In this document: piece by piece, positions 484 through 51,270 of the stretch
Position numbering within the stretch: the first letter of the stretch is position 1
Layout of the letters: the number at the start of each line of letters is the position of its first letter
Source of the DNA: a bacterium
GTDB taxonomy: Bacteria; Patescibacteriota; Patescibacteriia; JACPHY01
Length of the DNA stretch: 64,000 nucleotides
Direction of reading: 5' to 3'
Assembly: GCA_030646955.1 (NCBI GenBank)
Contig: JAUSKM010000015.1
Span: 285 to 64,284, forward strand
Made by a program: the position numbers and the translations under genes
The notes under the pieces: generated by a model
The model's database searches: none
What the model was told of the DNA's origin: nothing
Seen by the model: only the letters and a program-made list of their open reading frames with translations

Positions 484-544
484 AGTCATCCAGTGTACCA
501 CGATGTTGCACTCACCCTTTTCCCGCAACTCCCACCCCCTCTAT

Positions 545-571
545 CTCCCTCCTCCCAACGGGAGGGGGAGG
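545..571. repeat. Short G/C-tract hairpin element (family G), intergenic
   Basis: ctccctcctcccaacgggagggggagg: a C-tract arm and a G-tract arm form an inverted repeat. Same style as the elements at 14805, 21676, 44254 and 56235. Confidence 0.6.
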
Positions 572-608
572 ACCGGACTTCTGATCCCTCCCCTCCTGTG
601 CCCCACCC

Positions 609-3225: not shown

Positions 3226-5157
3226 TCACCGCTTGAGCACGGCGATGTAGGCCTCCGGGGGGAGGTCAACACGGCCGGTGGCGCGCATGGCTTTCTTGCC
3301 TTTCTTCTGCTTCTCCAGGAGCTTCTTCTTGCGCGTAACGTCGCCGCCGTAGAGACCGGCAGTGACGTCCTTGCGGAGCGGCGAGATGCGGGCGCTGGCG
3401 ACAATCTTGCCACCGATCGCCGCCTGAATGCGCACCTCAAACTGGTGGCGCGGGATCACGTCCTTGAGCCGCTCGACGATCCGCCGCCCCACCTGCTGCG
3501 CTTCGTCCTCGTACACAATTGTCGCGAGCGATTCCTCTGGTTCGTCCACAACAAAAATGTCGAGGCGCCGCACGTTCGCCTCGCGGTGCTCGGAAATTTC
3601 GTAATTCATGGACGCGTACCCCTGGGAAACACTCTTGAGCCGATCATAAAAATCCACCAGCACCTTCGCAAGCGGCAGCTCGTACTTCAGGAGCGCGCGC
3701 CGTTGCCCCTCGATGCCGCCGGCAAGGTACTCCGTGGTGCGGTAGGTGCCGCGGTACTCCTGGCAGAGCTGCATGAGCCCGCCCACGTACTGCTCTGGCG
3801 TCACGATGTCCATGCGCACCCACGGCTCCTCAATTGCCGCGATGGACGACGGGTCCGGCAGCTCCTGCGGCGAACGGATGACTTCTCGCGCGCTGCTGTC
3901 CGCTTGGTGTTGCCGGCGCACCCAGTATGCAACACTCGGCACCGTCACCACCACGTCCATGTTGTGCTCGCGGATAAGCCGCTCCCGGAACACGTCCAGG
4001 TGGAGGAGGCCCAAGAATCCGCAGCGGAACCCCACGCCCAGTGCCTGCGAATGCTCCGGCTCCGCGACAAGCGCAGCATCGTTGAGGCGTAGCTGATCAA
4101 TGGCATCACGGAGCTGTTCCGTTTCATCCGAGTTCTTGGGGAACACGCCAGCGAACACCATGGGCCGCACGTCCTTGTACCCGGGGAGCGGCGCGGTTGC
4201 CGCGTACTTCGCGCCCGTCATAGTATCGCCAACGCGCACGCTTCGGATGTCCTTGAGGCCCGTCACGATGTATCCGATCTCCCCCGGCCCCACCTCGTCC
4301 GTCGCATAGAGCTTGGGGTTAAACGATCCCACCTCGCTGGCCTCTACCACCGTACCGGTGGTGAAGAATTTGAGTTTATCACCGCGCGCAACCGATCCGT
4401 CCACCACGCGCACATACGCGATGACGCCCCGAAAATCGTCGTACACAGAATCAAAAATGAGTGCGCGCAATCTCCGATCCCCCACCTCATCTTGAGGGGG
4501 GGGCGTCCGCACGGGTGCCGGTACCCGCTCCACCACCGCGTCGAGCAACATCGCAACGCCCTCGCCCGTCTTTCCGGAGACGGCAAGAATCTCCTCACGC
4601 GCGCATCCCAACAGCTCCATGATTTCCTGCGCCGTGCGCTCAACGTCCGCCGCCGGCAGATCAATTTTGTTGATCGCCGGAATAATGACGAGGTCCTGCT
4701 CCATCGCCAAGTACAGGTTCGCAATCGTCTGCGCCTGCACACCCTGCGTCGCATCTACGAGCAGGATTGCTCCCTCCACTGCCGCAAGCGAACGCGAGAC
4801 CTCGTACGTGAAGTCCACATGCCCGGGCGTGTCGATGAGGTGGAATATGTACTCCTCCTGATGATCCCCCACCTCCCGCTCGTCTGCGTCCGCCGGAGCG
4901 CGGAGGGAGGAGGGGCGAGGGGGGGTGGGCGTCCGCATCGTTCCGCCATGCGCGCCCAGCGTCCATCGCATGCGGACTGGCGCCAGCTTGATCGTAATCC
5001 CCCGCTCCTGCTCCAGGTCCATCTGGTCCAGCGTTTGCTGCTTCATGTCCCGGCTACTCACCGTTCCCGTGAGCTCCAACATCCGGTCCGCCAGCGTGGA
5101 TTTGCCGTGGTCAATGTGGGCGATGATGCAAAAATTGCGAATGGATGATGATTCCAT
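3226..5157 (-). CDS. lepA: Elongation factor 4 (LepA)
   Basis: MESSSIRNFCIIAHIDHGKSTLADRML, DTPGHVDF and NKIDLP GTPase motifs, with full-length LepA-like order to the C-terminus. Start trimmed from 5394 to the ATG at 5157. It contains an extra segment of about 30 aa before DTPGH (see findings). Confidence 0.95.
   Translation of the reverse strand: MESSSIRNFCIIAHIDHGKSTLADRMLELTGTVSSRDMKQQTLDQMDLEQERGITIKLAPVRMRWTLGAHGGTMRTPTPPRPSSLRAPADADEREVGDHQEEYIFHLIDTPGHVDFTYEVSRSLAAVEGAILLVDATQGVQAQTIANLYLAMEQDLVIIPAINKIDLPAADVERTAQEIMELLGCAREEILAVSGKTGEGVAMLLDAVVERVPAPVRTPPPQDEVGDRRLRALIFDSVYDDFRGVIAYVRVVDGSVARGDKLKFFTTGTVVEASEVGSFNPKLYATDEVGPGEIGYIVTGLKDIRSVRVGDTMTGAKYAATAPLPGYKDVRPMVFAGVFPKNSDETEQLRDAIDQLRLNDAALVAEPEHSQALGVGFRCGFLGLLHLDVFRERLIREHNMDVVVTVPSVAYWVRRQHQADSSAREVIRSPQELPDPSSIAAIEEPWVRMDIVTPEQYVGGLMQLCQEYRGTYRTTEYLAGGIEGQRRALLKYELPLAKVLVDFYDRLKSVSQGYASMNYEISEHREANVRRLDIFVVDEPEESLATIVYEDEAQQVGRRIVERLKDVIPRHQFEVRIQAAIGGKIVASARISPLRKDVTAGLYGGDVTRKKKLLEKQKKGKKAMRATGRVDLPPEAYIAVLKR
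4866..4930. repeat. G/C-tract element inside lepA
   Basis: cccccacctcccgc...gcggagggaggaggggcgagggggggtgggc. Translated in the lepA frame as RTPTPPRPSSLRAPADADEREVGD. Confidence 0.6.
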
Positions 5158-7815: not shown

Positions 7816-7837
7816 ACTTTGACAATAAAATTGGTGC

Positions 7838-7868
7838 GTGTGAGATTGCTTCGCATGCTCGCAATGAC
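7838..7868. repeat. Single family-T repeat unit (TTGC/GCAA type)
   Basis: gtgtgagattgcttcgcatgctcgcaatgac. Its reverse complement is gtcattgcgagcatgcgaagcaatctcacac. Confidence 0.8.
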
Positions 7869-7924
7869 AATACTTAGGAATAAGTGGACTTAACATTTTC
7901 GACACCGTTTTCAAACACGGTCTC

Positions 7925-9852: not shown

Positions 9853-9862
9853 TTTTCCATCT

Positions 9863-9942
9863 GTCATTTCGAACGCAGCGAGAAATCTCACACGATCCAA
9901 TAACTGCCGACACGCGAGATTGCTTCGCGGACTCGCAATGAC
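9863..9942. repeat. Inverted pair of family-T units (TTTC type + TTGC type)
   Basis: gtcatttcgaacgcagcgagaaatctcacacg (9863-9894) and cacgcgagattgcttcgcggactcgcaatgac (9911-9942). Confidence 0.8.
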
Positions 9943-9977
9943 AGTACGTATGTGATGCCGTGAAATTGCAATCGTTA

Positions 9978-14368: not shown

Positions 14369-16171
14369 CTACTCCATAATGGGCGCGGCTGCGGTGCCTC
14401 GTGCCGGTTCGCTCGCTGCGATGACGCGGGAAGAAGCGAACACCTCCAGGGCGGCGTCAACGGTGGTGTCGCCGGTGGCGGGGCGGCAGGCGCGGTCGAG
14501 CTCTTCAAAGTGCTCCACCGCAATCGCGACGGGATCCAGGTGGAGGGGCGTGCCGACGATGCGTGCGATGGCGCTGGTGAGCGGCTCTATGATGCCGGGC
14601 TGCCGCACTTTCTCCGCGTGGAGCTTGTAGCGGAAGCCGATGGTGAGCGTCCCGTCTGCAATGCGTTGCGGGCGACCGCCTTCCAGGAGGTACGGGATGG
14701 AGCGGTTGACGTCCGCGAGATCGCGGATGATGTGGTGCCATTGTTGCTGGACTTTCGAGAGCGCCTCGGTGGCGCTCTGGATGACGGTGGATGTTGGAAG
14801 TTGCTCCCTCCTCCCGGCGGAAGGGGGAGGAATAAAACGCACCCCCTCTGACTCCCCCTCTTGAAGAGGGGGAGGAACCGGATCGGATGTATCTGTTACC
14901 GTCGTTGGGAGTTTGATGCTTGCAGGGGTACGAGCGCGCGAGGCGTGTTGGGGGGTACGGGCTGCACCGCCGGTGGTGGCGGGTGGAGCATCGTCGTCAT
15001 TGCTCCGCGATGCGTCTCGCTGAGACGAGGCGAGCTGCGCGGGATTCATTTTGCCTGGTGATGCGCTCGCTGCGGGCGCTGCGGGAACGAATGGGGAGCG
15101 CGCGAGGAGCGTAAGGACGGCAACCTCGAGGAGGAAGAACGGACGGTCTGCACGACCGATGCGATCCAGGAGTTCCGTGAACATGCGAAGCGCGAACACC
15201 TGTGCCGTCGCAACGGCACCTTGCTGGGCGGCAGCGCGTGCGGCGCTGCGCAGCTCGTTGATGATGTCGCGACAAAACGCATCCGCATCGCATCCCTCGG
15301 CTGATGCAGCATCGAGCGTGGCCAGGGCCAATGCGGTGTCGCCGGCACCAACCGCGCGAAGCAGCGTCTGGACATGCACCATGTTTGATTGCGGGAGCAC
15401 GAGCGCGGCAACATCGGCCGTCACTCGCTTCCCGCCCACCGCCATGAGCTGCCCCAACAGGGATTCTGCGTCACGCACGGAGCCGTCTGCCGCGCGGACT
15501 ACCTGCGCGAGCACCTCGTCATCCACGGCAACATCCTCTACCCCTGCAAGCATCCGGAGCCGCTCCGTGAGCGTCCCATCCCCCACGCGCCGGAACGTAA
15601 AATGCTGGCACCGTGACGTGATCGTCTCCGGCACCTTCTGCATTTCCGTTGTCGCAAGGATGAAGTGGACGTGCTCTGGCGGCTCCTCCAGCGTCTTGAG
15701 GAGCGCATTAAAGGACGCCGTCGAGAGCATGTGCACCTCGTCAATGATGTACACCTTCTTTGCTGCAACTGCGGGGGCGATACGCACCGCCTCGATGATG
15801 TACTCACGCACCTTCTCCACCTGCGTGTTGGATGCCGCATCAATCTCCACGACATCCATGCAACGTCCTGCGGTAATTTCCTCGCACCGGATGCAGGCGT
15901 TACAAGGCACGGGAAGTGTTTGCTTCGACCGGTGCTTCGCGCGAGTTTCTTCGTCGCTCCGCTCCTCGGAATGACGAGGAGCGAGGCAATTCACCGCCTT
16001 CGCCAGGAGCCGCGCGGTGGTGGTCTTTCCAACGCCGCGCGGACCGGAGAAAAGGTACGCATGCGCAACACGACCCGCCGCGATAGCCGCGACGAGCGTG
16101 CGCGTGACATGCTCCTGCCCCACGACGTCCTCAAACGTCTGCGGGCGATGCTTACGATACAGTACGGGCAT
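14369..16171 (-). CDS. dnaX: DNA polymerase III subunit gamma/tau
   Basis: MPVLYRKHRPQTFEDVVGQEHV, Walker A GPRGVGKTT, DEVHML, TSRCQ. Start trimmed to the ATG at 16171. It carries two repeat-derived segments (features at 14805 and 15941). Confidence 0.9.
   Translation of the reverse strand: MPVLYRKHRPQTFEDVVGQEHVTRTLVAAIAAGRVAHAYLFSGPRGVGKTTTARLLAKAVNCLAPRHSEERSDEETRAKHRSKQTLPVPCNACIRCEEITAGRCMDVVEIDAASNTQVEKVREYIIEAVRIAPAVAAKKVYIIDEVHMLSTASFNALLKTLEEPPEHVHFILATTEMQKVPETITSRCQHFTFRRVGDGTLTERLRMLAGVEDVAVDDEVLAQVVRAADGSVRDAESLLGQLMAVGGKRVTADVAALVLPQSNMVHVQTLLRAVGAGDTALALATLDAASAEGCDADAFCRDIINELRSAARAAAQQGAVATAQVFALRMFTELLDRIGRADRPFFLLEVAVLTLLARSPFVPAAPAASASPGKMNPAQLASSQRDASRSNDDDAPPATTGGAARTPQHASRARTPASIKLPTTVTDTSDPVPPPLQEGESEGVRFIPPPSAGRREQLPTSTVIQSATEALSKVQQQWHHIIRDLADVNRSIPYLLEGGRPQRIADGTLTIGFRYKLHAEKVRQPGIIEPLTSAIARIVGTPLHLDPVAIAVEHFEELDRACRPATGDTTVDAALEVFASSRVIAASEPARGTAAAPIME
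14805..14874. repeat. Two adjacent G/C-tract hairpins inside the dnaX 3' half
   Basis: ctccctcctcccggcggaagggggagga and ctccccctcttgaagagggggag. Translated as PPLQEGESEGVRFIPPPSAGRRE. Confidence 0.65.
15941..15975. repeat. Family-T repeat unit inside the dnaX zinc-module region
   Basis: The reverse complement gtcattccgaggagcggagcgacgaagaaactcgcg is near-identical to the intergenic unit gtcattgcgaggagcgaagcgacgaagcaatcccgg at 24924-24961. Translated as RHSEERSDEETRA. Confidence 0.75.
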
Positions 16172-17921: not shown

Positions 17922-20342
17922 CTACCCCAGCTGTGACCGCTCCATGATCTCCTGCTCCACGAGCATGCGATCGCGTCCGTAGGTGAGGCGCGAGAGCTGC
18001 CGAATGGCATCCGCCACCTTGGGATCGCCGTGCGGCGGCGGACGCGTGTAGAAATTGAACGGCCGCTGCGCGGTGTTGTCAATCATGAGTCGGATGTACG
18101 CATTGCGCGCCTCGATGTTCATGACATCGTGCTGCGTCACGGGCGGGCCAAGCTGTGTCGCGATGGTCTCCGCATCGTCCACACCCACGCGGAAGCTCAC
18201 AACGGAGCCCACGTTCCCAAAAATCGCATCACGCACAGCCGTGTCGTTGTTCTGCACGAGCTGGCCAATGTACTGATGCGCCATGATAAGGTTCAACCGG
18301 TACTTGCGCGCCTCGGCAAGAATGGTCGCAATGGAATCGGTTACGAAGTTCTGAAACTCGTCAATGTAGAGGTAGAAGTCCTTGCGATCCGCCTCTGGCA
18401 TGTCCGCACGCGCGAGCGCGGCGATCTGCAATTTCGTCACACAGATGAGACCCAGGAGCTTCGCGTTCATCTCGCCCACTTTGCCCTTTGAGAGGTTCAC
18501 GAGCAGAATCTTTTGCTTGTCCATTATTTCACGGAAATCAATGCCGGAATGTTGCTGACCGATGATGTTGCGCACCATCGTATTCTCAATAAACCTGCCG
18601 ATCTTTGAAACGAGGTACGGAAGCATCTCGCCCTTGGTCTGACTGCTCGTCTGGGGCAGCTCTTTCTCCCAGAAGGCGCGCACGATAGGATCCGTCACCT
18701 GCTGAAGTTTGAGCTTCTGGTACCCCTCGTCCGTAAGGATGCGTGGGATTTCCACGAGCGTCCCCGGGTTCTGCATGTCCGCCATGAGCGTAATCATCGC
18801 GTTGCGCATGTAATGCTCAAACATCGGCCCGATCATCTGCGGATCGGAGACGAGCTTGTAGAAGATTGCGATCATCTCCTGCGTCGCAAAATCAATCGCC
18901 TCCGGCGTTTTTGCTTCCAGCATGTTGAGGCCTACCGGCCGCTCAACATCGGACGGGTCAAAAACAACAACATCACCCGCGCGCTCCTTGGGGATGTTCG
19001 GAAGCACGTCCTCCACGAACGAGCCGTGCGGATCAATGACGCACACACCCTTTCCGGCGCGAATGTCCTGGATCACCATGTTCAACATGATGTTGGTCTT
19101 TCCGACGCCCGTGCTCCCGATGAGGTACATGTGCCGCTGGCGATCCTGCTGCTTCATGCGTACCGTCACGTTACGGCCGCGGTATGACGCATCGCCCAAA
19201 ATGACGCCCTCCGTGGGGAGTGATACTGGCGGTGCTGCACGCCGTGCGCCGAGCCATTCAATGTTCGGCGTCTGCGCGGACGGCAGCGGGAGATGCCACA
19301 CACTCGCCATCTCCTCTGTATTGAGCACCACACGCTGCCGCTCATCAAACTGGCGGTACACAAAGCGGCGGATGCGTGCATCATCCGCGCTGGCCTTCCC
19401 CACCACGAACATGTTGCCGTACTCGGGCATCCCGTACTGCGCAAACGCCTGCGTGATGGAATTGAGGACGAGATCTGTACGCTCTGCCGTTGCTGCAGAT
19501 GCAACGATACGGACGTTCGCATCGAGTCCAAACTTTGATGCCTTCTCCTCCAATCCCTTCACGATCTCCTGCTCCATGGGTGAGAGCTGGTGCTGCTCTT
19601 TTTCTTTCGTACCGCCACCGATACCCGCGATTGCTCTCCACGATGTGCCACCTGCGGCATCCTTCCCCTGCTGCATGTCGCGCGCTTTCTGCACCCCGCC
19701 CGAACGCCACGAGCGGCGTGCAGACCGGACGACGAACTGCATCGCCGCACCCTCCTGCTCGCCAATCTTGCTCATCGCATTCGTGAGCGCATCGAGCGGA
19801 TCGGATTCCATCTTGCGGTAGGACTTGATGGGGTAGTATCCCGCGCGCTTGAATGTCACCGTCGCACCGCGAATAACGCCGTGCGGCTGGAAAATATTGT
19901 AGTCACTCGCCTCACTCATCGAGGCATCGGGCTCCTGCGCATGGAGCTGCTCCTCAATATACCCCTGGTGCCGGCGCGGTATTGCAATGTAAAACTGTAC
20001 CTTGCCGGCGGACGCAACAATTTCGAACGCGAACGTATCATCGCGCCCAAAGAGCCAGGCCTTCAGTCCGCGCTGGGCGTGCAGTCCCGCAATCGCGGTA
20101 AAAAACGCCTCGGTCTGCGCGATGGATTCCTGAATTTGCTGCGAGTTTGCCACGCCCTGCTCCTCCTCACGACCGCGCTCGCGCGGGACAAGCACCTTGA
20201 GCACCACCAAATCAAATGTCCGCACGACGGAGACGTGGTGCCGGGCAATCGCTCGCACGATGAACAGCGCCACTATGAACGCACTGCCGGCGCCGAGAAA
20301 CACCGCGAGCGCGATGAGAATCTGGAAAATAGACAGCGTCAT
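17922..20342 (-). CDS. VirD4/TraD/TraG-like membrane-anchored AAA ATPase (type IV coupling-protein-like)
   Basis: N-terminal TM segment (ILIALAVFLGAGSAFIVALFIV), Walker A HMYLIGSTGVGKTN, Walker B DFYLYIDEFQNF, and a C-terminal AHQYIGQL...FRVG region. Start trimmed to the ATG at 20342. Confidence 0.8.
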   Translation of the reverse strand: MTLSIFQILIALAVFLGAGSAFIVALFIVRAIARHHVSVVRTFDLVVLKVLVPRERGREEEQGVANSQQIQESIAQTEAFFTAIAGLHAQRGLKAWLFGRDDTFAFEIVASAGKVQFYIAIPRRHQGYIEEQLHAQEPDASMSEASDYNIFQPHGVIRGATVTFKRAGYYPIKSYRKMESDPLDALTNAMSKIGEQEGAAMQFVVRSARRSWRSGGVQKARDMQQGKDAAGGTSWRAIAGIGGGTKEKEQHQLSPMEQEIVKGLEEKASKFGLDANVRIVASAATAERTDLVLNSITQAFAQYGMPEYGNMFVVGKASADDARIRRFVYRQFDERQRVVLNTEEMASVWHLPLPSAQTPNIEWLGARRAAPPVSLPTEGVILGDASYRGRNVTVRMKQQDRQRHMYLIGSTGVGKTNIMLNMVIQDIRAGKGVCVIDPHGSFVEDVLPNIPKERAGDVVVFDPSDVERPVGLNMLEAKTPEAIDFATQEMIAIFYKLVSDPQMIGPMFEHYMRNAMITLMADMQNPGTLVEIPRILTDEGYQKLKLQQVTDPIVRAFWEKELPQTSSQTKGEMLPYLVSKIGRFIENTMVRNIIGQQHSGIDFREIMDKQKILLVNLSKGKVGEMNAKLLGLICVTKLQIAALARADMPEADRKDFYLYIDEFQNFVTDSIATILAEARKYRLNLIMAHQYIGQLVQNNDTAVRDAIFGNVGSVVSFRVGVDDAETIATQLGPPVTQHDVMNIEARNAYIRLMIDNTAQRPFNFYTRPPPHGDPKVADAIRQLSRLTYGRDRMLVEQEIMERSQLG

Positions 20343-20359
20343 GCGTACGAGCGCGATGC

Positions 20360-20809
20360 TTACTTCTGCTTCCGGGCGAGCGCGAGGATTGCGTCGGTCT
20401 TCACCTTTGCTTCTTGCGTAAGAAACCACCGGTTGAGCCGCGGGATGACGTGCAGCCATCGAACGATGTCTCCGTGCGCTTCCCGCACATCCACCGGACC
20501 ACGCACGAACATGGCTTCAAGGCGTTCTGCAAGACGGCTGGCAGCGCCACGGAATGCTTGCTGCACCTGCGGGTCCAAACCCATGTAGAGCGCCTTGAGC
20601 TGCTCATCTGCCAATGCAATCTCAATGTCTTCACGCAATGGTGATTTCTGCACGCGCGGCGCCGCCGAGGATTGCGGAATCGACGCGCGCGCTGCAGGCG
20701 ACGCGCTGGCACGCTCCGGCGCTGCCGGGCGTTGCTCGAGCTGTTCCGTGATGCGCGCGAGGGTGCGCGGCTGCTCGACAATCGGTTGTTCCGGTGATCC
20801 GAGCGGCAT
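20360..20809 (-). CDS. Hypothetical protein (disordered N-terminus, helical C-terminus), 18 nt upstream of the ATPase gene
   Basis: 149-aa ORF on the same strand, tightly spaced with the ATPase gene. The C-terminal half is LKALYMGLDPQVQQAFRGAASRLAERLEAMF.... No motif recognised. Confidence 0.55.
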   Translation of the reverse strand: MPLGSPEQPIVEQPRTLARITEQLEQRPAAPERASASPAARASIPQSSAAPRVQKSPLREDIEIALADEQLKALYMGLDPQVQQAFRGAASRLAERLEAMFVRGPVDVREAHGDIVRWLHVIPRLNRWFLTQEAKVKTDAILALARKQK

Positions 20810-20866
20810 AGCGACGATATTCGTGCTTCCAGTATACCACTTTGGTATGCATCCCGACGACCCCGC

Positions 20867-22306
20867 CTATGCCCCCCCTCGAACCTTCGGCCCGTCTTGC
20901 GTATCTTCAACGGTGTACCCCAGCGCGGCAATCTGCGCGCGGAGACGATCAGCGCGTGCCCAATCCTTCTCGGTGCGTGCGTGCTCTCGCGCACGCACGA
21001 GCTCCAGCACCTCCGGCGGAACGACGAATGGTTTACCCAAAACGTCGCGCAGCCCTAGTGCAAATACCTCATCCGCATACGCAACGAACGCGCTCTGCTC
21101 CACGGTTCGCTCGCTCTTCTTGAGGCATTCCCAGAGCAACGCGAGCGCTTTTGGCGTGTCGAGATCGTCGTTCATGGCATCCAAGAACCGCTCGGTGGTC
21201 TTGTGCACCTTCACCTTCAGCTGCGCGCTCACGCGTACCGGCGGCTTGGGGAATTCGCGGCACTGTGTTCGCAGATGCTCCAGCGCATGCTGCGCAGCGG
21301 TGAGGGATTCCCAGGTAAAGTTGAGCGGCGAACGGTAGTGCGCGCCCAGCACCAAATACCGATATGCAAGCGGATCAATCCCCCGCTCAATCAACTGCGT
21401 GATGGTAATGAGGTTCCCCTCGGACTTCCCCATGCGCTTGCCGTCCACGGTCAGGAATGCGCCATGGAGCCAATACGCTGCGAGCGGCTTCCCGTACGCC
21501 GCTTCGGACTGCGCAATCTCGTTCGTGTGATGGACGGGAATGTGATCAATCCCGCCCGTGTGGATATCAAACGGCTGCCCCAACAGCTCACGGCTCATGA
21601 CGGAGCACTCCAAATGCCACCCGGGGAACCCTGTCCCCCACGGCGATTCCCACTCCTGCTGACGTTTCCTCTGTTCCCCCCCCTCCCGCTGGAAGGGGGG
21701 GCTGGGGGGGGTAGGGTTTGAAAGTTTCCACAGCGCGAAATCGTGCGGCAATCGCTTCTCGCCCACCGCAACGCGCATACCGCCCGCCTTCTCCTCCAGC
21801 TTCTGACCGCGGAACGCCGTGCCGTAGGACGCGAGCTTCGCGGTGTCAAAATACACACCGTCCGATGTCGTATAGGTGTACCCCTGCTTCTCCAAACGCT
21901 CTACCAGCGCAATCTGCTGCGCGATGTACTCCGTTGCCTTGGGCATCGCGTCTGGTGTGAGGATGTGCAGCCGCTCAAGGTCCTGCAGGAATGCCTGCGT
22001 GTAAAAATCCGCCAGTTCCCGCGCAGACTGCTTGCGCTGCGCAGCTGCGCGTTCCAATTTATCCTCGCCGGTATCCGCGTCGCCCACGAGATGTCCTACG
22101 TCCGTAATGTTCATGACGTGCTTCACCCGCAACCCATTGAGCAGGAGCGTCCGCCGAAGCACATCCGCAAACACGTACGACCGCAAATTCCCAACGTGCG
22201 CAAAATCGTACACCGTCGGCCCGCACGTGTACACGCGAACGCTCCGACCGCGCAGCGGCCGGAACGGTTCGATCGTCTTGGTGAGGGAGTTATGGAGCGC
22301 GAGCAT
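20867..22306 (-). CDS. cysS: Cysteine--tRNA ligase
   Basis: VYTCGPTVYDFAHVGNLRSY gives the HIGH-type motif, GWHLECS the zinc site and KRMGKS the KMSKS-type motif. Start trimmed to the ATG at 22306. It contains a repeat-derived insert (feature at 21676). Confidence 0.92.
   Translation of the reverse strand: MLALHNSLTKTIEPFRPLRGRSVRVYTCGPTVYDFAHVGNLRSYVFADVLRRTLLLNGLRVKHVMNITDVGHLVGDADTGEDKLERAAAQRKQSARELADFYTQAFLQDLERLHILTPDAMPKATEYIAQQIALVERLEKQGYTYTTSDGVYFDTAKLASYGTAFRGQKLEEKAGGMRVAVGEKRLPHDFALWKLSNPTPPSPPFQREGGEQRKRQQEWESPWGTGFPGWHLECSVMSRELLGQPFDIHTGGIDHIPVHHTNEIAQSEAAYGKPLAAYWLHGAFLTVDGKRMGKSEGNLITITQLIERGIDPLAYRYLVLGAHYRSPLNFTWESLTAAQHALEHLRTQCREFPKPPVRVSAQLKVKVHKTTERFLDAMNDDLDTPKALALLWECLKKSERTVEQSAFVAYADEVFALGLRDVLGKPFVVPPEVLELVRAREHARTEKDWARADRLRAQIAALGYTVEDTQDGPKVRGGA
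21676..21716. repeat. G/C-tract element inside cysS
   Basis: ccccccccctcccgctggaagggggggctggggggggtaggg. Translated as NPTPPSPPFQREGGEQ. Near-identical to the element in rfbD at 56235. Confidence 0.75.
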
Positions 22307-22307
22307 G

Positions 22308-23927
22308 CTAAGGTGCGAGGCGGGCGCAAATGGCGTACGATGTTGCTGTTCTGTTGAAAGCGGTGCCATTTCGATACCCGCATCCCCAGCTCTGACCTGT
22401 GGTAACTGGATACGAATGCAGTAGTTGCATCGCTCCGGACCCGTCATCTTTACATCCGCCACCGATCCTTTGGCCGGCGGCACAAGTCACGACCCCAGAC
22501 GCAGTTACTGCATTTGCTGGAACACTGAAAGAGCTTTCAATGATTGTGAGACCGATGGATAGATTTCCATCGATCGTTGTATTTCCGTACACGTGCAGCT
22601 TTGCTGTATCGGTTCCCAAGAATCCACCAATGCCCAACCGATCATCGATGCGCTCGTCTCCATACACACGCAACTTCACCCCGGAAGGCGCTGCACCACC
22701 AATACCAACACCCAACGCACCACCCCCGACATGGAGTCGGTTGATCGTACCCAACGCATTCGAGAGCTTCAATTCACCCTCTTCGCTCACTTCCAATATC
22801 GGATCCGCCTGTAGGGGGGTGTAGCTATTGTGCTGCCCCAACACCCTAAACCAACTCGCTCCAACGTCATTCCCATCCGCATCAATCTGCACCTCCGCAT
22901 TTGCGGTGCTGGACATCACAAGAGGCGCGGTAACGTTGAGGGTAGATGCATGCACAAATCCCAATTGCGCACTCTTGTCATCGCGCAGCCGTAACGTAGA
23001 TGTTCCATCAGACGTCGCCACCGTCAATGCGCTCCCAGGATTCGCGTTTGTTGCATTCACCTTGAATTGAATATTTCCACTCGCATCAACATAGAAATTT
23101 CCGGCCGTTACATCAAGATTGGCCTGTGTCCCATTCCCCGCGATTTCCACTTTTCCCGCACGCGCAGTTCCCGCAATCCAGAGGTCACTCCCGCTGGTGC
23201 TCGTCTGCCCCGCTGGTGCGATGACGAGATCCGTAAGGGATACAAAATCGCCCGTTGCACCCGCTGCCGGCCACGCGCCGCGGCAGTCGCCCTGGAGACA
23301 GAGCTGGCCGGTGGTGGCGATGTCGCCCGCGACCCACAGCTTCCTGCTCGCATCCGGCGTAGCGCCGATGCCAACGTTACCCGTGACACCACTCACGTGC
23401 ATGCGCACCGCGGCACTCGTTCCAGAAACGGTACTCAACGTGAGATCTGCTGGAGGTGCCGATGACGACGCTGGCATGGCGACAATCGAGCCCCCCTGAA
23501 CGTAGAGTGCTGGTCCGACAAGTACCCCTTTCCCCGCCTGTCCGTACGCGTAGAGAAATCCGTTAGCGCTCGAAACGTACGCATCACCCGCGGCGTTCTG
23601 CACGCTGAAGTCGGACGAGCCCCGCATGATGAATCTCTCATTTTCCCCGTACAGATACCCGGATCCTTCGCTGCCCTGCAGGATGATGTTCCCACTCGCA
23701 AGGACGTTTGCCGCTTGCAATGCACCGCTGATGACAATGTTGCCCGTTTGCGTCTCTGGGGTCCCTGCGCCCCCCTGCAACCATACAAACCCCGGCGGAT
23801 TACCGGACGGAGGCGCTTGCCCTGGCTCCTGCCACTGCGCGTACGCGGACGATGCAAGTCCCGCAACCCCGAGGAAGAGGGCGACCACAAACATTGCGTA
23901 TGGGTGGTGACGGTTGGATGATTGCAT
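22308..23927 (-). CDS. Secreted tail-fibre-like repeat surface protein
   Basis: Signal peptide MFVVALFLGVAGLASSAYA. Recurring GNVGIGATPDASRKLWVAGD and KLHVYGNTTIDGNLSIG type repeats. An LCLQGDCRGAWP motif and a Cys-containing C-terminal domain. The stop TAG (22310-22308) abuts the cysS ATG (22306). Confidence 0.65.
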   Translation of the reverse strand: MQSSNRHHPYAMFVVALFLGVAGLASSAYAQWQEPGQAPPSGNPPGFVWLQGGAGTPETQTGNIVISGALQAANVLASGNIILQGSEGSGYLYGENERFIMRGSSDFSVQNAAGDAYVSSANGFLYAYGQAGKGVLVGPALYVQGGSIVAMPASSSAPPADLTLSTVSGTSAAVRMHVSGVTGNVGIGATPDASRKLWVAGDIATTGQLCLQGDCRGAWPAAGATGDFVSLTDLVIAPAGQTSTSGSDLWIAGTARAGKVEIAGNGTQANLDVTAGNFYVDASGNIQFKVNATNANPGSALTVATSDGTSTLRLRDDKSAQLGFVHASTLNVTAPLVMSSTANAEVQIDADGNDVGASWFRVLGQHNSYTPLQADPILEVSEEGELKLSNALGTINRLHVGGGALGVGIGGAAPSGVKLRVYGDERIDDRLGIGGFLGTDTAKLHVYGNTTIDGNLSIGLTIIESSFSVPANAVTASGVVTCAAGQRIGGGCKDDGSGAMQLLHSYPVTTGQSWGCGYRNGTAFNRTATSYAICARLAP

Positions 23928-24176
23928 TCCTAGCTGCTCCACGCGAGATCCCTGGACGATCCTCGGAATGACGAGGAAAGGAAACTCTGTATGACGGGAG
24001 ATTAAAAGGGGGACCTCTGCAAAAGTTGTGTTATTGCGAGCCGAACCCGTGAAGCGTGGCAATCCCGGCGTTAGGTTGACCGAGATTGCGGAGCCTGTCC
24101 CGAGTACGCGATGGATCCGCGTGTGTGACTCCTCACCATGACACCGTAGGGTTTTTTGGAGGTCTCAAGGGACAAT

Positions 24177-24803: not shown

Positions 24804-24961
24804 GCCGGAATTGCCACGTCGAGGACTCCTCGCAATGACAATACCGGTGTCATTGCGAGTCCGCGAAGCAATCCCGGCCATGTGCAGCACTGTGCTGCGT
24901 CGCCATCGCAAGAGTCCTGCTATGGCCGGGATTGCTTCGTCGCTTCGCTCCTCGCAATGAC
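24804..24961. repeat. Three family-T units, two of which form a long hairpin
   Basis: gccggaattgccacgtcgaggactcctcgcaatgac (24804-24839) faces gtcattgcgagtccgcgaagcaatcccggcc (24849-24879). A third, inverted unit ggccgggattgcttcgtcgcttcgctcctcgcaatgac lies at 24924-24961. Confidence 0.85.
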
Positions 24962-24998
24962 AACGTGGGCGTGACGAGGGGAATGACGGCTTCACGTA

Positions 24999-26141: not shown

Positions 26142-26239
26142 CCATCGCTCATCACCGTAGCATGCTGCTGCGCGATGGACAATCATTTCCCCTCCCTCTC
26201 CGCTTCCAGGGGAGCGGTGGTGCGATACCGCGCCACCGC

Positions 26240-26310
26240 ACAGTCATACATGGCCACCTCTCCCCCTCTAGCTCCCCCTCCCCCCATGAGTACGTGCGGG
26301 GAGGGGGAGG
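26240..26310 (+). repeat. About 72-bp G/C-tract element, long form, copy A
   Basis: acagtcatacatggccacctctccccctctagctccccctccccccatgagtacgtgcggggagggggagg aligns along its length with 45806-45878 and with the reverse complement of 60164-60235. Confidence 0.85.
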
Positions 26311-26417
26311 ACAAGAACATCGGAGTCGCTGGAGACACTTTTCGCATCCGCCACAAATGGAAGCGCCAGCGCGATACCAAGCATCGCGAGGATCAACACC
26401 TTCGTACGACGTTGCAT
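26268..26417 (-). CDS. Possible 49-aa secreted peptide in the dnaK-dnaJ spacer
   Basis: MQRRTKVLILAMLGIALALPFVADAKSVSSDSDVLVLPLPARTHGGRGS has a signal-peptide-like N-terminus, but the last third is encoded by the repeat element. Speculative. Confidence 0.2.
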   Translation of the reverse strand: MQRRTKVLILAMLGIALALPFVADAKSVSSDSDVLVLPLPARTHGGRGS

Positions 26418-26579: not shown

Positions 26580-28427
26580 TTATTCTTTCTCCTTGAAATC
26601 CGCATCCTTCGCCGCATCTTCTCCATCCGGCTTCTTCTCGGGTTCCTTGTCCCCCGTTCCTTGTTCCTTGTTCTCCTTGTACATCGCCTCGCCGATCTTG
26701 GAGAGTGCCGGTTGCAGCTCGTCCAATGCGCGCGTGATCGCGGCAATATCCTGACCATCTTTCACCTCGCGCAGCGCGCGCACTTTTGTCTCCACCTCGG
26801 TCTTCACCGTAGCATCCACCTTGTCGCCAAGATCGCGCAACGATTTCTCGGCGGTGTGGATGATCGTCTCCGCCTGATTGCGCAGCTCGATCAGTTCCTT
26901 GAGCTTCTTGTCCTCCTCGGCGTGCGCATCGGCGTCCTTCTTCATACGCCCCACTTCCGCATCGGAGAGCTTTGCGGAACCGGAGATGGTAATCTTCTGC
27001 TCCTTGCTGGTTGCCTTGTCCTTCGCGGACACCGTGAGGATGCCGTTCGCATCAATGTCGAACGTCACCTCCACCTGCGGGATGCCGCGCGGTGCGGGCG
27101 GGATGCCGTCGAGCATGAACCGACCGAGCGATTTATTATCCTTCGCCATGGGCCGCTCACCCTGCAGCACATGCACCTCCACGCCCGTCTGGTTGTCCGC
27201 AGCGGTGGAGAACACCTGCGATTTGCTGGTGGGGATCGTTGCGTTGCGCTCGATGAGCGGCGTTGCAACGCCGCCGAGCGTTTCAATGGAGAGCGTGAGC
27301 GGCGTGACATCCAGGAGCAGGATATCCTTCGCGCTGGAGTCCTCGCCAGAGAGCACGCTCGCCTGAATCGCCGCGCCCTTCGCGACGCACTCCATGGGAT
27401 CCACGCCGTGCTCAATCTTCTTGCCCACAATGCTCTCCACAAGCTGCTGAACGACGGGCATGCGCGTGGGACCGCCGACCAGGATGACGCGCTCGACGGT
27501 CTGCGGCGTAATGCCTGCGTCTTTCAGCGCCCGCTCCACCGGCGCGCGGCACCGATCCACCGTGGGACGCACCAGCTCTTCCAACGTCGCGCGCGTCACC
27601 TTCACCAACAGATGTTTGGGACCATCCGCCGTCGCGGAGATAAACGGGAGGTTCACCTCCGTCTCCATGGTGGTGGAGAGTTCGATCTTTGCCTTCTCCG
27701 CCGCCTCGTGGAGGCGCTGGAGCGCCATCGCGTCCTTGCGCAAATCCACGCCGTTCGTACGATGGAACTCATCCGCAATATAGTTGAGGAGCACCTCGTC
27801 CATGTCGCGGCCACCCAGTTGCGTATCGCCAGAGGTCGAACGCACCTCAAAGACACCCTGGCTGAAATTCATGACGGTCACGTCCAGTGTGCCGCCGCCC
27901 AAATCGAACACCACCACTTGTTGCTCCTTATCCGTCACCTTATCCAGACCGTACGCGAGCGCTGCCGCGGTTGGCTCGTTGATGATACGCACCACCTCCA
28001 ACCCCGCAATGCGCCCCGCGTCCTTCGTCGCCTGGCGCTGATCGTCATCAAAGTACGCCGGCACGGTAATGACGGCTTTCTCTACTGGCTCACCAAGATA
28101 CTTCTCGGCATCCTGCTTGATCTTCTGCAACACGAACGCGGAGAGCTGCTGCGGCGTGTAGTCCTTGTCCCCCGTCTTTGCCTTCCAATCCGTCCCCATC
28201 CGACGCTTGAACCCGTGGAACGTACGATCCGGGTTGGACACCGCCTGCCGCCGCGCCGGCTCCCCCACCAACCGCTGTCCGTCCTTGGTGAACGCAACGT
28301 ACGACGGAAACGCCTTCCCGCCGATCGTGGACCCTTCCGCCGCCGGAATGATGTTCACGCTCCCCCCCTGCATCACCGCCGCGGCGGAGTTGGACGTCCC
28401 CAGGTCAATACCGATGATCTTTGGCAT
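26580..28427 (-). CDS. dnaK: Chaperone DnaK (Hsp70)
   Basis: [37 protein letters not shown], plus the substrate-binding and lid regions. Start trimmed to the ATG at 28427. Confidence 0.97.
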
Positions 28428-28495
28428 AGTTTTCTTGTGTGACTTCACCTACCCCGTCTTATCATTGCACGTGAAAATCTGAAGGCCTCCATCGT

Positions 28496-29776: not shown

Positions 29777-29857
29777 TCCTTTGCGAGTCCGTGAGGGCGC
29801 AGCAATCTCTCTGCCTGATTGGCCGGGATTACCACGTCGCGGACTCCTCGCAATGAC
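29777..29857. repeat. Two family-T units (one degenerate, one inverted)
   Basis: cctttgcgagtccgtgagggcgcagcaatctctc and ggccgggattaccacgtcgcggactcctcgcaatgac. Confidence 0.7.
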
Positions 29858-29943
29858 ACAAACATACGAAATTCTACCTCTCAAAAAGAACGAGACCCGC
29901 ACTTTCGTACGGGTCTCAGGTAATACTCCTCGAAGTTTGCGGC

Positions 29944-33272: not shown

Positions 33273-33344
33273 GGCCCCATCGTCTAGCGGCTAGGACGGT
33301 GCCCTCTCACGGCACAAACCCGGGTTCGATTCCCGGTGGGGTCA
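33273..33344 (+). tRNA. tRNA-Glu (anticodon CUC)
   Basis: GGCCCCA TC GTCT AGCGGCTA GGAC G GTGCC CTCTCAC GGCAC AAAC CCGGG TTCGATT CCCGG TGGGGTC A. Folded by hand. Confidence 0.9.
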
Positions 33345-33347
33345 TAT

Positions 33348-33381
33348 GAAAACCGCCCTCCGATTTCGGAGGGCGGTTTTC
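33348..33381. terminator. Bidirectional rho-independent terminator (tRNA-Glu / murF)
   Basis: gaaaaccgccctccga tt tcggagggcggttttc is a perfect 16-bp stem flanked by A and T runs. It abuts the murF stop at 33383. Confidence 0.85.
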
Positions 33382-43002: not shown

Positions 43003-43758
43003 ATGTTCAATCATCAGGATTTTTTCACACTCGAGCGCCGTGCAAAGCAGCAACGCGTTGCCGCGATTGCAGGCAGCGCGCTCGCCGCGATCCTGCTCGT
43101 GACCTTCGCAACCGCGACCGACGCGTCCCGGGCTGTGGATAGCGCATCGCTCGCGCTGGTGTCCGCGGATTGCGCGCCGGTCGTACGCGGCCGCACCATC
43201 CACGTCGCCTGGGAGACCACCGTCGCAGCGGATGAAAATTCCGTCATGGTTGGATCGGACGACATGTTCGGCACCACCGTCGCCGCAACGCCGGGGACGC
43301 GCCACGCAGCAGTCATCGCAGACCTCCCCAGCGGCGCGACCGTCCACTATCGCGTCACATCGCGACGTACTGCCACGGAGGAGACCGCCGCATCCGGTAC
43401 CTGCGTGGTCACGGTGGATGGCCTCGACACCGCCGCGCCACGCTTCACCGATGTCATTGTGGACAGTGTTGTCACCGATGCGGCCGCGGTCCACTTCGCA
43501 ACCAACGAACCCGCCGCGCTCCTCGTTACCGTGACATCCTTTGATGCAGACGGCGCCATCGTCACCGCATCGGAGACCACCGCCACCCAGGATATCGTGT
43601 CGCCTCCCGCCCACCGCATCGTCCTCTCCGGCCTCACCCCCGGCACGCGCTACACCGTCCGCGCAGACGCCATCGACAACGCTGGCAACTCCACCACCTT
43701 GACACCCCCCATCGAATTCCGTACGCTGCATGTGCCCGCCCCCGTAGCTCAGTGGTAG
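43003..43758 (+). CDS. Membrane-anchored protein with two FN3-like domains
   Basis: MFNHQDFFTLERRAKQQRVAAIAGSALAAILLVTFA provides the anchor. Two beta-sandwich-like repeats end in GATVHYRVTS and GTRYTVRADAIDNAGNS. The ORF has no stop until 43758, which is 21 nt inside tRNA-Lys. Confidence 0.6.
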   Translation: MFNHQDFFTLERRAKQQRVAAIAGSALAAILLVTFATATDASRAVDSASLALVSADCAPVVRGRTIHVAWETTVAADENSVMVGSDDMFGTTVAATPGTRHAAVIADLPSGATVHYRVTSRRTATEETAASGTCVVTVDGLDTAAPRFTDVIVDSVVTDAAAVHFATNEPAALLVTVTSFDADGAIVTASETTATQDIVSPPAHRIVLSGLTPGTRYTVRADAIDNAGNSTTLTPPIEFRTLHVPAPVAQW

Positions 43759-43809
43759 AGCAGCGGCCTTTTAAGCCGAATGTCGCAGGTCCGATCCCTG
43801 CCGGGGGCA
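43738..43809 (+). tRNA. tRNA-Lys (anticodon UUU)
   Basis: GCCCCCG TA GCTC AGTGGTA GAGC A GCGGC CTTTTAA GCCGA ATGTC GCAGG TCCGATC CCTGC CGGGGGC A. Folded by hand. There is one G-A mismatch at the top of the anticodon stem. Confidence 0.88.
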
Positions 43810-43830: not shown

Positions 43831-43872
43831 CAACAAAACACCCACCCCAGCAATGGGGTGGGTGTTTTGTTG
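43831..43872. terminator. Bidirectional rho-independent terminator (tRNA-Lys / murG)
   Basis: caacaaaacacccacccc agcaat ggggtgggtgttttgttg is an 18-bp perfect stem, followed by gttttt. Confidence 0.85.
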
Positions 43873-43884
43873 GTTTTTCGCCCG

Positions 43885-44952
43885 TCACTGCGCTGCTTGC
43901 ATGACCACGCGCGCAAGCGTGGCGGCGGCGTTGTCGGGAAACATGGTGGCGATGGAACGACCGAGTTTGGCGCGACGGTTGGCATCCTCGAGAAGCGCAT
44001 GGATGCGTTGTGTGAAGACGCCGGGCGCGACGAGGGCCCGCGAATTCCAAACCTCCGCAGCACCGCGCTCGTTGAGTTGCTGCGCGTTGTCTTCCTGGTG
44101 AGTGGATGGCATGGGCACCAGCACCGTCGGTTTACCCAGGCACCCCAGCTCCGCGATCGTCCCCATGCCCGCACGACTCACCACAAGATCCGCAGCAGCG
44201 AGCGCGGGAATCATATCGTCGGCGAGAAACTCAAATTGTCGATAGGATCCGGCCCACTCCCCCTTCCCAGCGGGAGTGGGGGGAACATTGCCCTGCTTCC
44301 CTTTCCCCGTCACATGAATCACGTCGGCAATCGCCGTCAGCTCGGGCAATGCGGCCCAGACAAGGTGGTTGAGCGCCATTGCGCCGGTGCCACCGCCAAG
44401 AATGAGGAGTACGTGTCGATTTCCGGAGAATCCAAAATGCCGCTGTGCTTCGCGCACATCCGCCACGCACGCATCGCGCACGGCGGCACGCACCGGCACG
44501 CCGATGCCCTCAGCGCCAAATGTCGCCGTCCGCGCGGACGAAAACCGCGCCACAAGCGTGTTGGCCAATGATGGACGCGCGTCCAGTTGGTGGATGACGA
44601 TCGGGATGCGCAGCACGCGCGCCGCAAGCATCACCGGCACCTGCACGTATGACCCCGCGCCCACCACCGTATCTGGCCGCTCCCGACGCAGAAACGCAAG
44701 TGCGCGCACGAACGCCCATGCAATTGCAAACGCATCCACGATATTCCGCCCATCCAGGTACCGTCGCAGCTTGCCTGCCGGAAACGCGATGAACCGGATC
44801 CCGTCGCGCTCCACCAACACCCGCTCCGGCCCCCGCCGCGTCCCAATCCACATCATCACCGCCCGCGGCCGCACATGCCGAATCTCCTCCGCGACAGCCA
44901 AGAGCGGGGTCACCGATCCCAATGTTCCGCCGCCGGTGAAGAGGATGGTCAT
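43885..44952 (-). CDS. murG: UDP-GlcNAc--lipid I GlcNAc transferase MurG
   Basis: MTILFTGGGTLGSVTPLLAVAEE glycine-rich loop, a GT28 two-domain layout, and C-terminal RAGMGTIAEL. Confidence 0.9.
   Translation of the reverse strand: MTILFTGGGTLGSVTPLLAVAEEIRHVRPRAVMMWIGTRRGPERVLVERDGIRFIAFPAGKLRRYLDGRNIVDAFAIAWAFVRALAFLRRERPDTVVGAGSYVQVPVMLAARVLRIPIVIHQLDARPSLANTLVARFSSARTATFGAEGIGVPVRAAVRDACVADVREAQRHFGFSGNRHVLLILGGGTGAMALNHLVWAALPELTAIADVIHVTGKGKQGNVPPTPAGKGEWAGSYRQFEFLADDMIPALAAADLVVSRAGMGTIAELGCLGKPTVLVPMPSTHQEDNAQQLNERGAAEVWNSRALVAPGVFTQRIHALLEDANRRAKLGRSIATMFPDNAAATLARVVMQAAQ
44254..44284. repeat. G/C-tract hairpin inside murG
   Basis: cccactccc ccttcccagc gggagtggg has a 9-bp perfect stem. 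Translated as PPTPAGKGEWAG. Confidence 0.6.
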
Positions 44953-45656: not shown

Positions 45657-45729
45657 AGTGCGCTCCTTGATGCTCGGTGCTCGGAATCTGGGCTCTTCGC
45701 CCTTTTCTGTCGCTCATGCTCTGTTTGAT

Positions 45730-45878: not shown

Positions 45879-45885
45879 TAAGGAG

Positions 45886-51232: not shown

Positions 51233-51270
51233 ACCGTACGCTCCTAGCTGCTGGCTCAGAAAACGATTCA

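Follow-up and report, generated by a model that had tools for sequence, protein, structure and literature searches.

We analysed a stretch of 64,000 nucleotides (contig JAUSKM010000015.1, assembly GCA_030646955.1), hereafter the window, in which a short, C/G-rich palindromic element lies inside two unrelated enzyme genes, cysS and rmlD (also called rfbD). The genes encode cysteine--tRNA ligase (cysteinyl-tRNA synthetase, CysRS) and dTDP-4-dehydrorhamnose reductase (RmlD). Both match, without a difference, proteins encoded on a 73-kb contig of an NCBI metagenome assembly, and their nearest relatives are found in Candidatus Uhrbacteria, of the candidate phyla radiation (CPR), or Patescibacteria. 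Genes in the window were called from GC content by codon position combined with Pfam matches (~40 open reading frames, ORFs). The two genes and their inserts are as follows.

20867-22306, minus strand: cysS, cysteine--tRNA ligase, 479 aa counted from MLALHN, identical to NCBI MDO8425143.1
21676-21716, plus strand: full recognisable element in cysS, reading CCCCCCCCTCCCGCTGGAAGGGGGGGCTGGGGGGGGTAGGG
21674-21712, plus strand: net insert of 39 nt in cysS, made of C-arm CCCCCCCCTCC, loop, G-arm GGAAGGGGGGG, CT and G-box GGGGGGGG; minus-strand reading TPPSPPFQREGGE
55698-56594, minus strand: rmlD, dTDP-4-dehydrorhamnose reductase, 298 aa, identical to NCBI MDO8425170.1
56233-56271, plus strand: element in rmlD, reading ATCCCCCCTCCCGCTGGGAGGGGGGGAAGGGGGGGGAGG, made of C-arm CCCCCCTCCC, GCT, G-arm GGGAGGGGGG, spacer and G-box GGGGGGGG; minus-strand reading LPPLPPLPAGGG

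The two copies follow one plan, in which a C-rich arm leads through a GCTG loop into the complementary G-rich arm, and a spacer of 2-3 nt then separates this arm from a second box of eight G (G8). Both lie in the same orientation, on the antisense strand of their host genes. A global alignment gives 34 identical columns out of 41, with ~90% identity over the shared core, and the parts common to both copies apart from the homopolymers (TCCC-GCTG-GRA, the spacer and the G8 box) are likewise ~90% identical. The element-derived peptides are NPTPPSPPFQREGGEQ in CysRS and DLPPLPPLPAGGGIG in RmlD, read in frames offset by one. An earlier reading of the window, made from the sequence alone, had reported near-identical antisense elements in the same orientation and in different frames, and our alignment agrees with it at both positions. 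Its sequence for the rfbD copy was exact, and that for the cysS copy carried one trivial C too many (nine written, eight present at 21676-21683). Using a 21-mer core with up to 3 mismatches, we found six occurrences in the window and none in 100 dinucleotide-preserving shuffles of it.

Next, we compared both proteins with their orthologues. In CysRS, the element occupies the loop between DFALWK and SPWGxGFPGWH. The spacing from DFALWK to GWH is 43 residues in the window protein versus 30 in 22 of 26 Uhrbacteria-like orthologues, a net gain of 13 aa (39 nt), and the protein has 13-16 residues more than solved CysRS structures, exactly at the insert. In RmlD, the element lies between STDYVF and YGRSK, and the spacing from HYSTDYVF to YGRSK is 46 residues versus 32 in 30 of 34 orthologues. 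This net gain of 14 aa (42 nt) equals the excess over structure 3sc6, which is 14 residues shorter. The inserts, absent from these 22 CysRS and 30 RmlD orthologues, are thus extra segments, as the sequence-only reading had supposed.

The closest sequenced relative (hereafter the sister genome; GCA_030647005.1, contig JAUSKG010000027.1, segments L213 and L214) has a CysRS ~71-73% identical to that of the window. Its cysS is syntenic, with a clean empty site and exactly 39 nt fewer. The empty site reads AAG CTC ACT GCT CCT GGC ATC AAG CGT, and the filled site in the window reads AAA CTT TCA AAC CCT (39 nt) CAG AGG AAA CGT. Measured against the empty site, the insert is A-C8-AG-C7TTCC-AGCG-GGAG-G8-AA, a bare hairpin plus box. 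Homology at the DNA level, different reading frames, absence from orthologues and the empty cysS site in the syntenic sister together bear out the proposal that these are independent insertions of one element.

Further copies in the window

We searched the window for other copies using a repeat search, hairpin enumeration and nhmmer profiles. The short family to which the cysS and rmlD elements belong has at least seven copies (cysS, rmlD, two in dnaX, murG, lepA and one intergenic), in both orientations relative to the host genes: antisense in cysS and rmlD, sense in murG and dnaX. All of the genic copies are in frame. Copies are 25-45 nt long with ragged boundaries, stems of 10-12 bp and loops of 3-4 nt, and hairpins with C and G arms number 20 in the window versus 3-9 in shuffles. 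The further copies are listed here.

14804-14880, minus strand: two adjacent hairpins (14804-14831 and 14842-14880) in the dnaX linker, in frame, read PPPLQEGESEGVRFIPPPSAGRRE
44253-44284, minus strand: hairpin in murG (43885-44952), in frame, read VPPTPAGKGEWAG
4479-4503, minus strand: hairpin in lepA (3226-5157), CCCCCCCCTCA AGA TGAGGTGGGGG, in frame, read TPPPQDEVGD
532-572, minus strand: intergenic copy, G-box included, 37 nt past the stop codon of an RNase H-like gene

Run on the 64-kb window, the search for further intragenic copies thus added those in dnaX, lepA and murG. These had escaped the sequence-only reading, as had the intergenic copy, a longer related family described below, and unrelated hairpins in the same loops of other CPR bacteria. 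The dnaX pair accounts for 27 additional residues, since the sister DnaX has a 27-aa gap exactly at both hairpins, followed by a conserved C-terminal domain. The lepA hairpin adds 7 aa to elongation factor 4 (EF4), judged against solved EF4 structures and most EF4 representatives. The murG loop measures 28-36 aa in relatives, and the window copy is 5 aa longer than that of the sister genome, its nearest relative; MurG shows no clear net insertion against solved structures, and the variability of its loop is visible only among close orthologues. The sister genome lacks the cysS, dnaX and murG inserts.

The window also holds a longer family of ~80-94 nt, with four intact copies, all intergenic, in both orientations and two of them forming an inverted pair. 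Each is built from a unique head ACAGCCCATCCATAG, a C-box CCACCTCTCCCCCTC and a 17-bp hairpin CTCCCCCTCCCCCCACG/AGTA/CGTGCGGGGAGGGGGAG. Judged by their sequences, the short and long families have a common design and are probably related.

26237-26328, plus strand: long copy (head, C-box and 17-bp hairpin) in the dnaK-dnaJ spacer
45715-45803, minus strand, and 45801-45894, plus strand: inverted pair of long copies just downstream of the ftsW stop codon
60149-60240, minus strand: long copy in the spacer between an rmlC-like gene and a family 2 glycosyltransferase (GT2) gene
4859-4927, minus strand: probable decayed long-family copy in lepA, in frame (nhmmer E=0.011, weak)

The probable lepA copy falls within a segment of 31 additional residues, TPTPPRPSSLRAPADADEREVGD, that is missing from the closest EF4 representative. 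The coding share of the window is ~88%, at which the placement of the short copies (six of seven genic) is roughly random. All four long copies lie in the 12% that is non-coding, for which the random expectation is 0.12^4, or ~2e-4. This difference, with long copies all intergenic and short ones mostly genic, fits a selective filter that depends on insert length. The long copies and the one intergenic short copy each follow closely on a stop codon, in spacers that separate co-directional genes.

A second, unrelated family of dispersed palindromes, GATTGCTTCGC...CTCGCAATGACA / TCCTCGTCATTCCGAGGAGCG, was also observed.

15960-15980 (in dnaX), 7835-7869, 9862-9943, 23957-23977, 24804-24966, 29822-29858, 48113-48146 and 48227-48247: members of the unrelated family

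Its dnaX copy (15960-15980) is in frame between Zn-finger cysteines, is read APRHSEERSDEE, and adds 13 aa relative to the sister DnaX. Therefore, in-frame colonisation is not specific to the C/G-run family.

Origin and spread of the element

We consider it likely that the cysS and rmlD inserts are copies of a short (~39-42 nt), non-autonomous dispersed palindromic repeat, similar in kind to repetitive extragenic palindromes (REPs) and Rickettsia palindromic elements (RPEs), whose present distribution has been filtered by selection. One unit has been copied at the DNA level into unrelated sites, in both orientations and in different frames. Its presence is lineage-specific, with empty sites in a syntenic relative and family members at non-orthologous loci.

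In the scheme we propose, copies would have been added at the DNA level after the split from the sequenced sister genome, at many sites and in either orientation. Frameshifting copies in essential genes would have been lost. Purifying selection on the host genes would keep those intragenic copies whose length is a multiple of three, which are stop-free in the frame used (almost any frame being open, given a composition of nearly all C and G), and which lie in surface loops or linkers tolerant of extra residues. We infer that only in-frame, stop-free, loop-located copies are retained in this way. The sequence-only reading went further, calling the element mobile, now or in the past, and selected to be ORF-neutral. 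Past mobility finds indirect support in the seven or more copies in both orientations and in the copies at non-orthologous loci in relatives. Selection for ORF neutrality does not, as the stop-free frames (five of six in the cysS copy, all six in the rmlD copy) follow from the C/G-run composition. Because purifying selection on essential genes explains lengths in multiples of three, no adaptation of the element itself is needed.

Several observations weigh against a dispersed, mobilised repeat. The census covers 64 kb of one Candidatus Uhrbacteria metagenome-assembled genome (MAG). DNA of the short copies folds at -12 to -14 kcal/mol, which does not stand out from shuffles with equal composition (z of -0.6 to -1.5). 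Any arrangement of a C-block and a G-block pairs well, which makes this unremarkable, and because the energies match those of shuffles, exceptional structure cannot be used as evidence of homology, which rests on sequence identity. Comparison of the filled and empty cysS sites shows no evident target-site duplication, nor a terminal inverted repeat. The long-family profile picks up the short copies, but the nhmmer E-values that link the two families are weak (0.003-0.08) and aided by composition. Pfam searches of the ~40 ORFs found no transposase, RAYT (REP-associated tyrosine transposase) or integrase in the window. Finally, the only Y1 transposase that we found in the lineage, in the sister genome, has a different REP beside it, one with a GTAG tag and no copy in the window, and therefore does not implicate the C/G hairpins.

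The genes identified by Pfam are ordinary CPR genes. They include an RNase H-like gene, recJ, lepA, murJ, dnaX, a VirD4-like ATPase gene, cysS, dnaJ/dnaK/grpE/hrcA, mur genes, a penicillin-binding protein gene, murG, ftsW, mraY, pyrG, murA and the rml operon.

We weighed the possibility that each segment formed where it stands, independently of the other, through homopolymer slippage or convergent selection for Pro/Gly linkers, and find it scarcely credible. The low complexity of the sequence, the variable length of these loops in other lineages and the folding energies could all be cited for it. However, the non-homopolymer parts are ~90% identical and yet are read in different frames as different peptides, which convergence at the protein level cannot explain; the motif is absent from shuffles, and the short-family unit occurs in intergenic DNA and in relatives as well.

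Spread without a dedicated enzyme is a more serious contender, though still an unlikely one. The process would be gene conversion, template switching at hairpins during replication or repair, or illegitimate recombination for which C/G runs, Pro-Pro codons for example, provide the seed; at the cysS site, 'TPP' is frequent among orthologues, and its C-rich codons could seed mispairing. The window's lack of a transposase, the lack of target-site duplications or terminal inverted repeats at cysS, and the ragged boundaries and variable length (25-45 nt) are all in keeping with such a process. However, the empty cysS site of the sister genome (ACT GCT CCT GGC ATC) is not a C-run, and elsewhere a clearly MITE-like element (miniature inverted-repeat transposable element) has identical modules at its ends. 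HUH/Y1 transposition leaves no target-site duplication. The missing duplication thus fits HUH/Y1 activity and, equally, gene conversion or template switching, and does not discriminate between them. We considered the direct repeat GGAGCG, which flanks the rmlD copy, as a target-site duplication and set it aside, as it misfits the net gain of 42 nt.

For a repeat that was mobilised, our leading guess, which the data favour only slightly, would be a hairpin-recognising single-strand activity of the HUH/Y1, RAYT-like kind acting in trans, the alternative being gene conversion or template switching. A gene of this kind is present in the sister genome, upstream of dnaK. It encodes a 138-aa Y1_Tnp protein (PF01797) with the C-terminus SYYDHVLRRDEDIRFVARYIAENPVRAGLV, which we take to resemble those of RAYTs. 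After the gene comes a REP with a GTAG tag, GGAGGCCTGAAGGCCTCCGCTAC, which is found again on that contig at a distance of 20 kb (loci L214:1-192 and L213:2376-2398). Gene and repeat together have the look of a REP/RAYT pair, here in a CPR bacterium. A tblastn search with the C-terminus of this protein gave no match in the window.

We also asked whether the repeat could be a DNA or RNA signal useful to the host, with genic copies kept for their function as sites bound by a nucleoid or repair protein, as hairpins that stabilise mRNA or pause translation, or as G-quadruplex/i-motif switches. From its sequence, the G-rich strand (G7-CT-G8) could form a three-tetrad G-quadruplex. The three-arm design recurs in both window families, in other CPR genomes and in a proteobacterial element, which suggests constraint, and the intergenic copies sit downstream of stop codons between co-directional genes, like REPs with roles at the RNA level. 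We nevertheless regard a host signal as quite improbable, because copies run with transcription as well as against it, the host genes have unrelated functions, sister genomes lack copies at the same sites, no Rfam family matches, and the element is without the T-tract of the organism's genuine intrinsic terminators. At the gathering threshold, Rfam found only 3 tRNAs in the 64-kb window, and no ribozyme or known structured RNA. Identity as a Rho-independent terminator was rejected, as the scan of the ftsW spacer found no terminator and no T-run follows the family copies that were read. Textbook bidirectional terminators, each with an A-tract, a GC hairpin and a T-tract, are found at 33353-33376 and 43839-43864, directly after the tRNA genes at 33273-33344 and 43738-43809; the organism's canonical terminators are therefore distinct from the repeat family.

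Predicted effect on the host proteins

We predicted the structures of both proteins using AlphaFold2 with orthologue alignments. The RmlD model has a mean predicted local distance difference test score (pLDDT) of 92.4 and a predicted template modelling score (pTM) of 0.91, with residues ~101-120 as coil at pLDDT 51-68. The CysRS model has a mean pLDDT of 84.0 and a pTM of 0.85, with residues 199-208 as coil at pLDDT below 50. Across both models, the inserts range from 46 to 68. The sequence-only reading had each insert tolerated as a Pro/Gly-rich loop, and these predictions, with low-pLDDT coil inside confident models, support that view as far as models go. The host ORFs are intact apart from the inserts, and the window proteins keep, by definition, every residue at which the orthologue alignments of CysRS and RmlD do not vary.

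Most likely, the inserts are transcribed and translated as flexible, disordered loops rich in Pro and Gly. The repeat lies inside at least five housekeeping genes and appears to be read through there as 5-31 extra loop residues, and the intragenic copies are probably near-neutral passengers. If the inserts are translated, candidate peptides spanning them are LSNPTPPSPPFQR and DLPPLPPLPAGGGIGAGYAEDAIPDPCSAYGR.

It is highly improbable that the segments are missing from the mature proteins through mini-intron or intein-like removal, that they are assembly artefacts, or that the hosts are pseudogenes. A consideration that favours these explanations is that C8/G8 homopolymers are error-prone in sequencing and replication. 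Against them, the inserts are stop-free multiples of three in intact ORFs that keep the invariant residues and give confident AlphaFold2 folds, and no Rfam family matches at the inserts. An independent Logan assembly (SRR13727527) is identical to the window over 2301 nt (20288-22588), homopolymer runs included; the cysS insert and its homopolymer lengths are therefore not the product of one assembler. To our knowledge, 39-42 nt is far below the size of any self-splicing intron or intein.

The inserts place C8/G8 tracts inside the essential genes cysS, rmlD and lepA (21676-21683, 21704-21711, 56261-56268 and 4496-4503). Replication tends to slip on homopolymers this long, and the inserts are therefore potential frameshift hot spots in essential genes. 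A further practical point is that the inserts inflate apparent protein divergence and can mislead gene callers and alignments of MAG proteins.

Relatives and similar repeats elsewhere

We then looked for the repeat in relatives and in other CPR lineages. In the sister genome, an inverted pair of the long family (E=9e-16 and 8.5e-12; L213:2568-2733) lies downstream of murG, a locus that differs from that of the window pair. A second Uhrbacteria MAG (GCA_043805865.1, L212) has two short copies with GCTG loop and G-box in the same murG loop, adding 30 aa; one of these, CCCCCCTTCCCGCTGGGAGGGGGGGTTGGGGGG, is of the cysS/rmlD form, and more copies occur elsewhere on the contig. On L211, hairpins lie downstream of cysS. 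On a CPR contig with 37% GC (L209), the RmlD loop in question holds a related unit, a C-box plus the hairpin CCCTCTCCC, and this unit is repeated at a distance of 6.7 kb. The CysRS loop of P0069 and P0015 is occupied by hairpins of other sequence (GGTCATCCTGAACTTGTTTCAGGATCC and GGTCATCCCGAGCGACCGGAGGGAGTCGAGGGATCC). Furthermore, 11 of 25 aligned EF4 representatives have unrelated inserts at the first of two EF4 loops, and several have them at the second.

The same permissive loops are thus hit repeatedly, either because selection leaves inserts only there or because the loops are preferred as targets. We would tentatively extend this to CPR bacteria in general, though we hold the wider proposal to be doubtful. 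Under it, a few permissive surface loops of core enzymes (CysRS after DFALWK, RmlD after STDYVF, two loops in EF4, the MurG inter-domain loop, and the DnaX linker and Zn module) would be repeatedly colonised by diverse short hairpins, and the C-arm/G-arm/box module would be a mobile unit that crosses phyla. If so, selfish palindromes would be a major and so far undescribed source of lineage-specific protein insertions in reduced CPR genomes, and the module, which also forms the ends of a proteobacterial MITE, would be moved by some enzyme.

A scan of GTDB representatives with the degenerate core CCCCMCTYCCGYYGGRRRGRRGG gave 87 matches, in scattered high-GC taxa and a few multi-copy genomes, and none from Patescibacteria; the source genome is apparently not a representative, and the scan is silent on its lineage. 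Many such hairpins are found in the Paracoccaceae MAG A1A2.bin.12 (L012, L015, L018, L020, L043, L047, L049, L065, L066 and L068) and in Thermohalobaculum sp. (L010, L057, L062, L073, L075 and L076). With many copies in two alphaproteobacterial genomes, C-run/G-run hairpins have arisen or spread in several unrelated lineages.

In a metagenome scan, the exact 22-mer came, among the matches listed, almost only from metagenome Ga0233403. There it belongs to a massively amplified intergenic element of ~230 bp, similar to MITEs or REPINs (doublets of REPs), at no fewer than 120 loci (L088-L207; for example, L092:2340-2565). The element has long terminal inverted repeats, with the identical 22-mer hairpin plus C-box, around an AT-rich core. 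The hairpin-plus-box module therefore serves elsewhere as the end of mobile-looking elements. Its host is a proteobacterium with ~38% GC (RpoH_proteo equivalog above cutoff), by which a close relationship to the window genome is ruled out. The likeness of the window module to the ends of this element may reflect homology or the convergence of a low-complexity design.

Our literature search, whose coverage was incomplete, returned no earlier description of intragenic palindromes in CPR bacteria or Patescibacteria. RPEs were reportedly described by Ogata et al. in 2000 (Science 290:347) and 2002 (Genome Res 12:808). They are palindromes with no known transposase, dispersed between genes and in frame in unrelated housekeeping genes, where they are compatible with the protein fold (PMC10969869, PMC3733652). 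In-frame coding palindromes are known mainly from Rickettsia, as RPEs, with fewer intragenic REPs in several free-living bacteria. Like RPEs, the window copies lie in frame in unrelated genes (cysS, rmlD, dnaX, lepA and murG) of a host-dependent bacterium with a reduced genome, at sites compatible with the fold. However, RPEs of the RPE-1 type are ~100-150 bp long with a conserved peptide, whereas the intragenic unit of the window consists of 25-45 nt of C/G runs in varied frames and orientations, with varied peptides. The host also differs, being a CPR bacterium (Candidatus Uhrbacteria), and the copies neither resemble RPEs in sequence nor carry a CGTC tag.

A minority of REPs of the GTAG/CGTC superfamilies are contained wholly within ORFs, where they encode ~10-30 aa; genes for replication or repair are frequent hosts (Di Nocera et al. 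2013, PMC3733652). The window repeat resembles them in that REPs are GC-rich stem-loops of 20-40 bp, mostly downstream of ORFs between co-directional genes, present as singles and inverted dimers (PMC3733652), and in that dnaX is a host here. However, the foot of its stem shows neither GTAG nor CGTC as a conserved tag; GTAG occurs only in the cysS copy, by chance within GGGGTAGGG. The arms are homopolymer-like, a third arm (the box) is added, and six of seven short copies are intragenic, compared with a minority of REPs. By extragenic position, the four long copies and one short copy fit the REP pattern, and the other six short copies do not.

REPIN/RAYT systems are doublets of REPs mobilised by a Y1 HUH transposase. 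The window repeat shares with them hairpins that leave no target-site duplication, inverted doublets (45715-45894 in the window, L213:2568-2733 in the sister genome) and a RAYT-like Y1_Tnp gene in the sister genome. It differs in that the sister's Y1 gene is flanked by its own GTAG REP, there is no RAYT in the window, and most window copies are singlets.

ERIC/RU elements (Delihas 2007, PMC2759123) and the QMITEs of Coxiella (PMC5896051) are small non-autonomous repeats that are sometimes genic and add peptide segments. The window copies are also small genic repeats that add peptides, and the identical hairpin plus box forms the terminal inverted repeats of the ~230-bp proteobacterial element. 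Unlike MITEs, the window copies have no terminal inverted repeats around a core, no target-site duplication and no known parent insertion sequence, and they are shorter than 70-300 bp. Hairpin-forming inverted repeats are also found in frame in essential protein genes of Nematomorpha mitochondria (PMC6649704), but those palindromes are long (up to 284 bp), perfect and organellar, and do not form one dispersed family. The window repeat works like RPEs and intragenic REPs and belongs to neither family.

What sets the repeat apart is its very short three-arm unit of C/G runs, the high genic fraction and the recurrent use of the same loops across CPR lineages. Coding palindromes in essential CPR genes (for an aminoacyl-tRNA synthetase, a clamp-loader subunit, EF4 and MurG) offer an explanation for some lineage-specific CPR insertions, and the inserts serve as natural maps of insertion tolerance in conserved enzymes. 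These results suggest that symbiont genomes, being small and weakly selected, may in general come to tolerate selfish hairpins inside genes.

Further lineage-specific inserts may be present in two other window genes. The GATase domain of the CTP synthase encoded by pyrG (49565-51307) spans 243 residues versus 190 positions in the model, and the Hsp70 match of dnaK (26580-28448) is split into two stretches.

On the second Uhrbacteria MAG contig, we observed a bAvd and RVT_1 gene pair (L212:4040-5447), the signature of a diversity-generating retroelement, located between AAA_5 and transglutaminase-core proteins and immediately preceding ftsW-murG. The bAvd gene is overlapped at its 3' end by a hairpin of the short family. 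Additionally, a large VirD4/TrwB-like coupling ATPase (DUF8128 + TrwB_AAD_bind) is encoded near cysS in three CPR genomes, which suggests a conserved neighbourhood.

Window 17922-20516: coupling ATPase (cysS at 20867-22306)
L210:19911-21395: coupling ATPase near cysS
L214:12912-15365: coupling ATPase near cysS, sister genome

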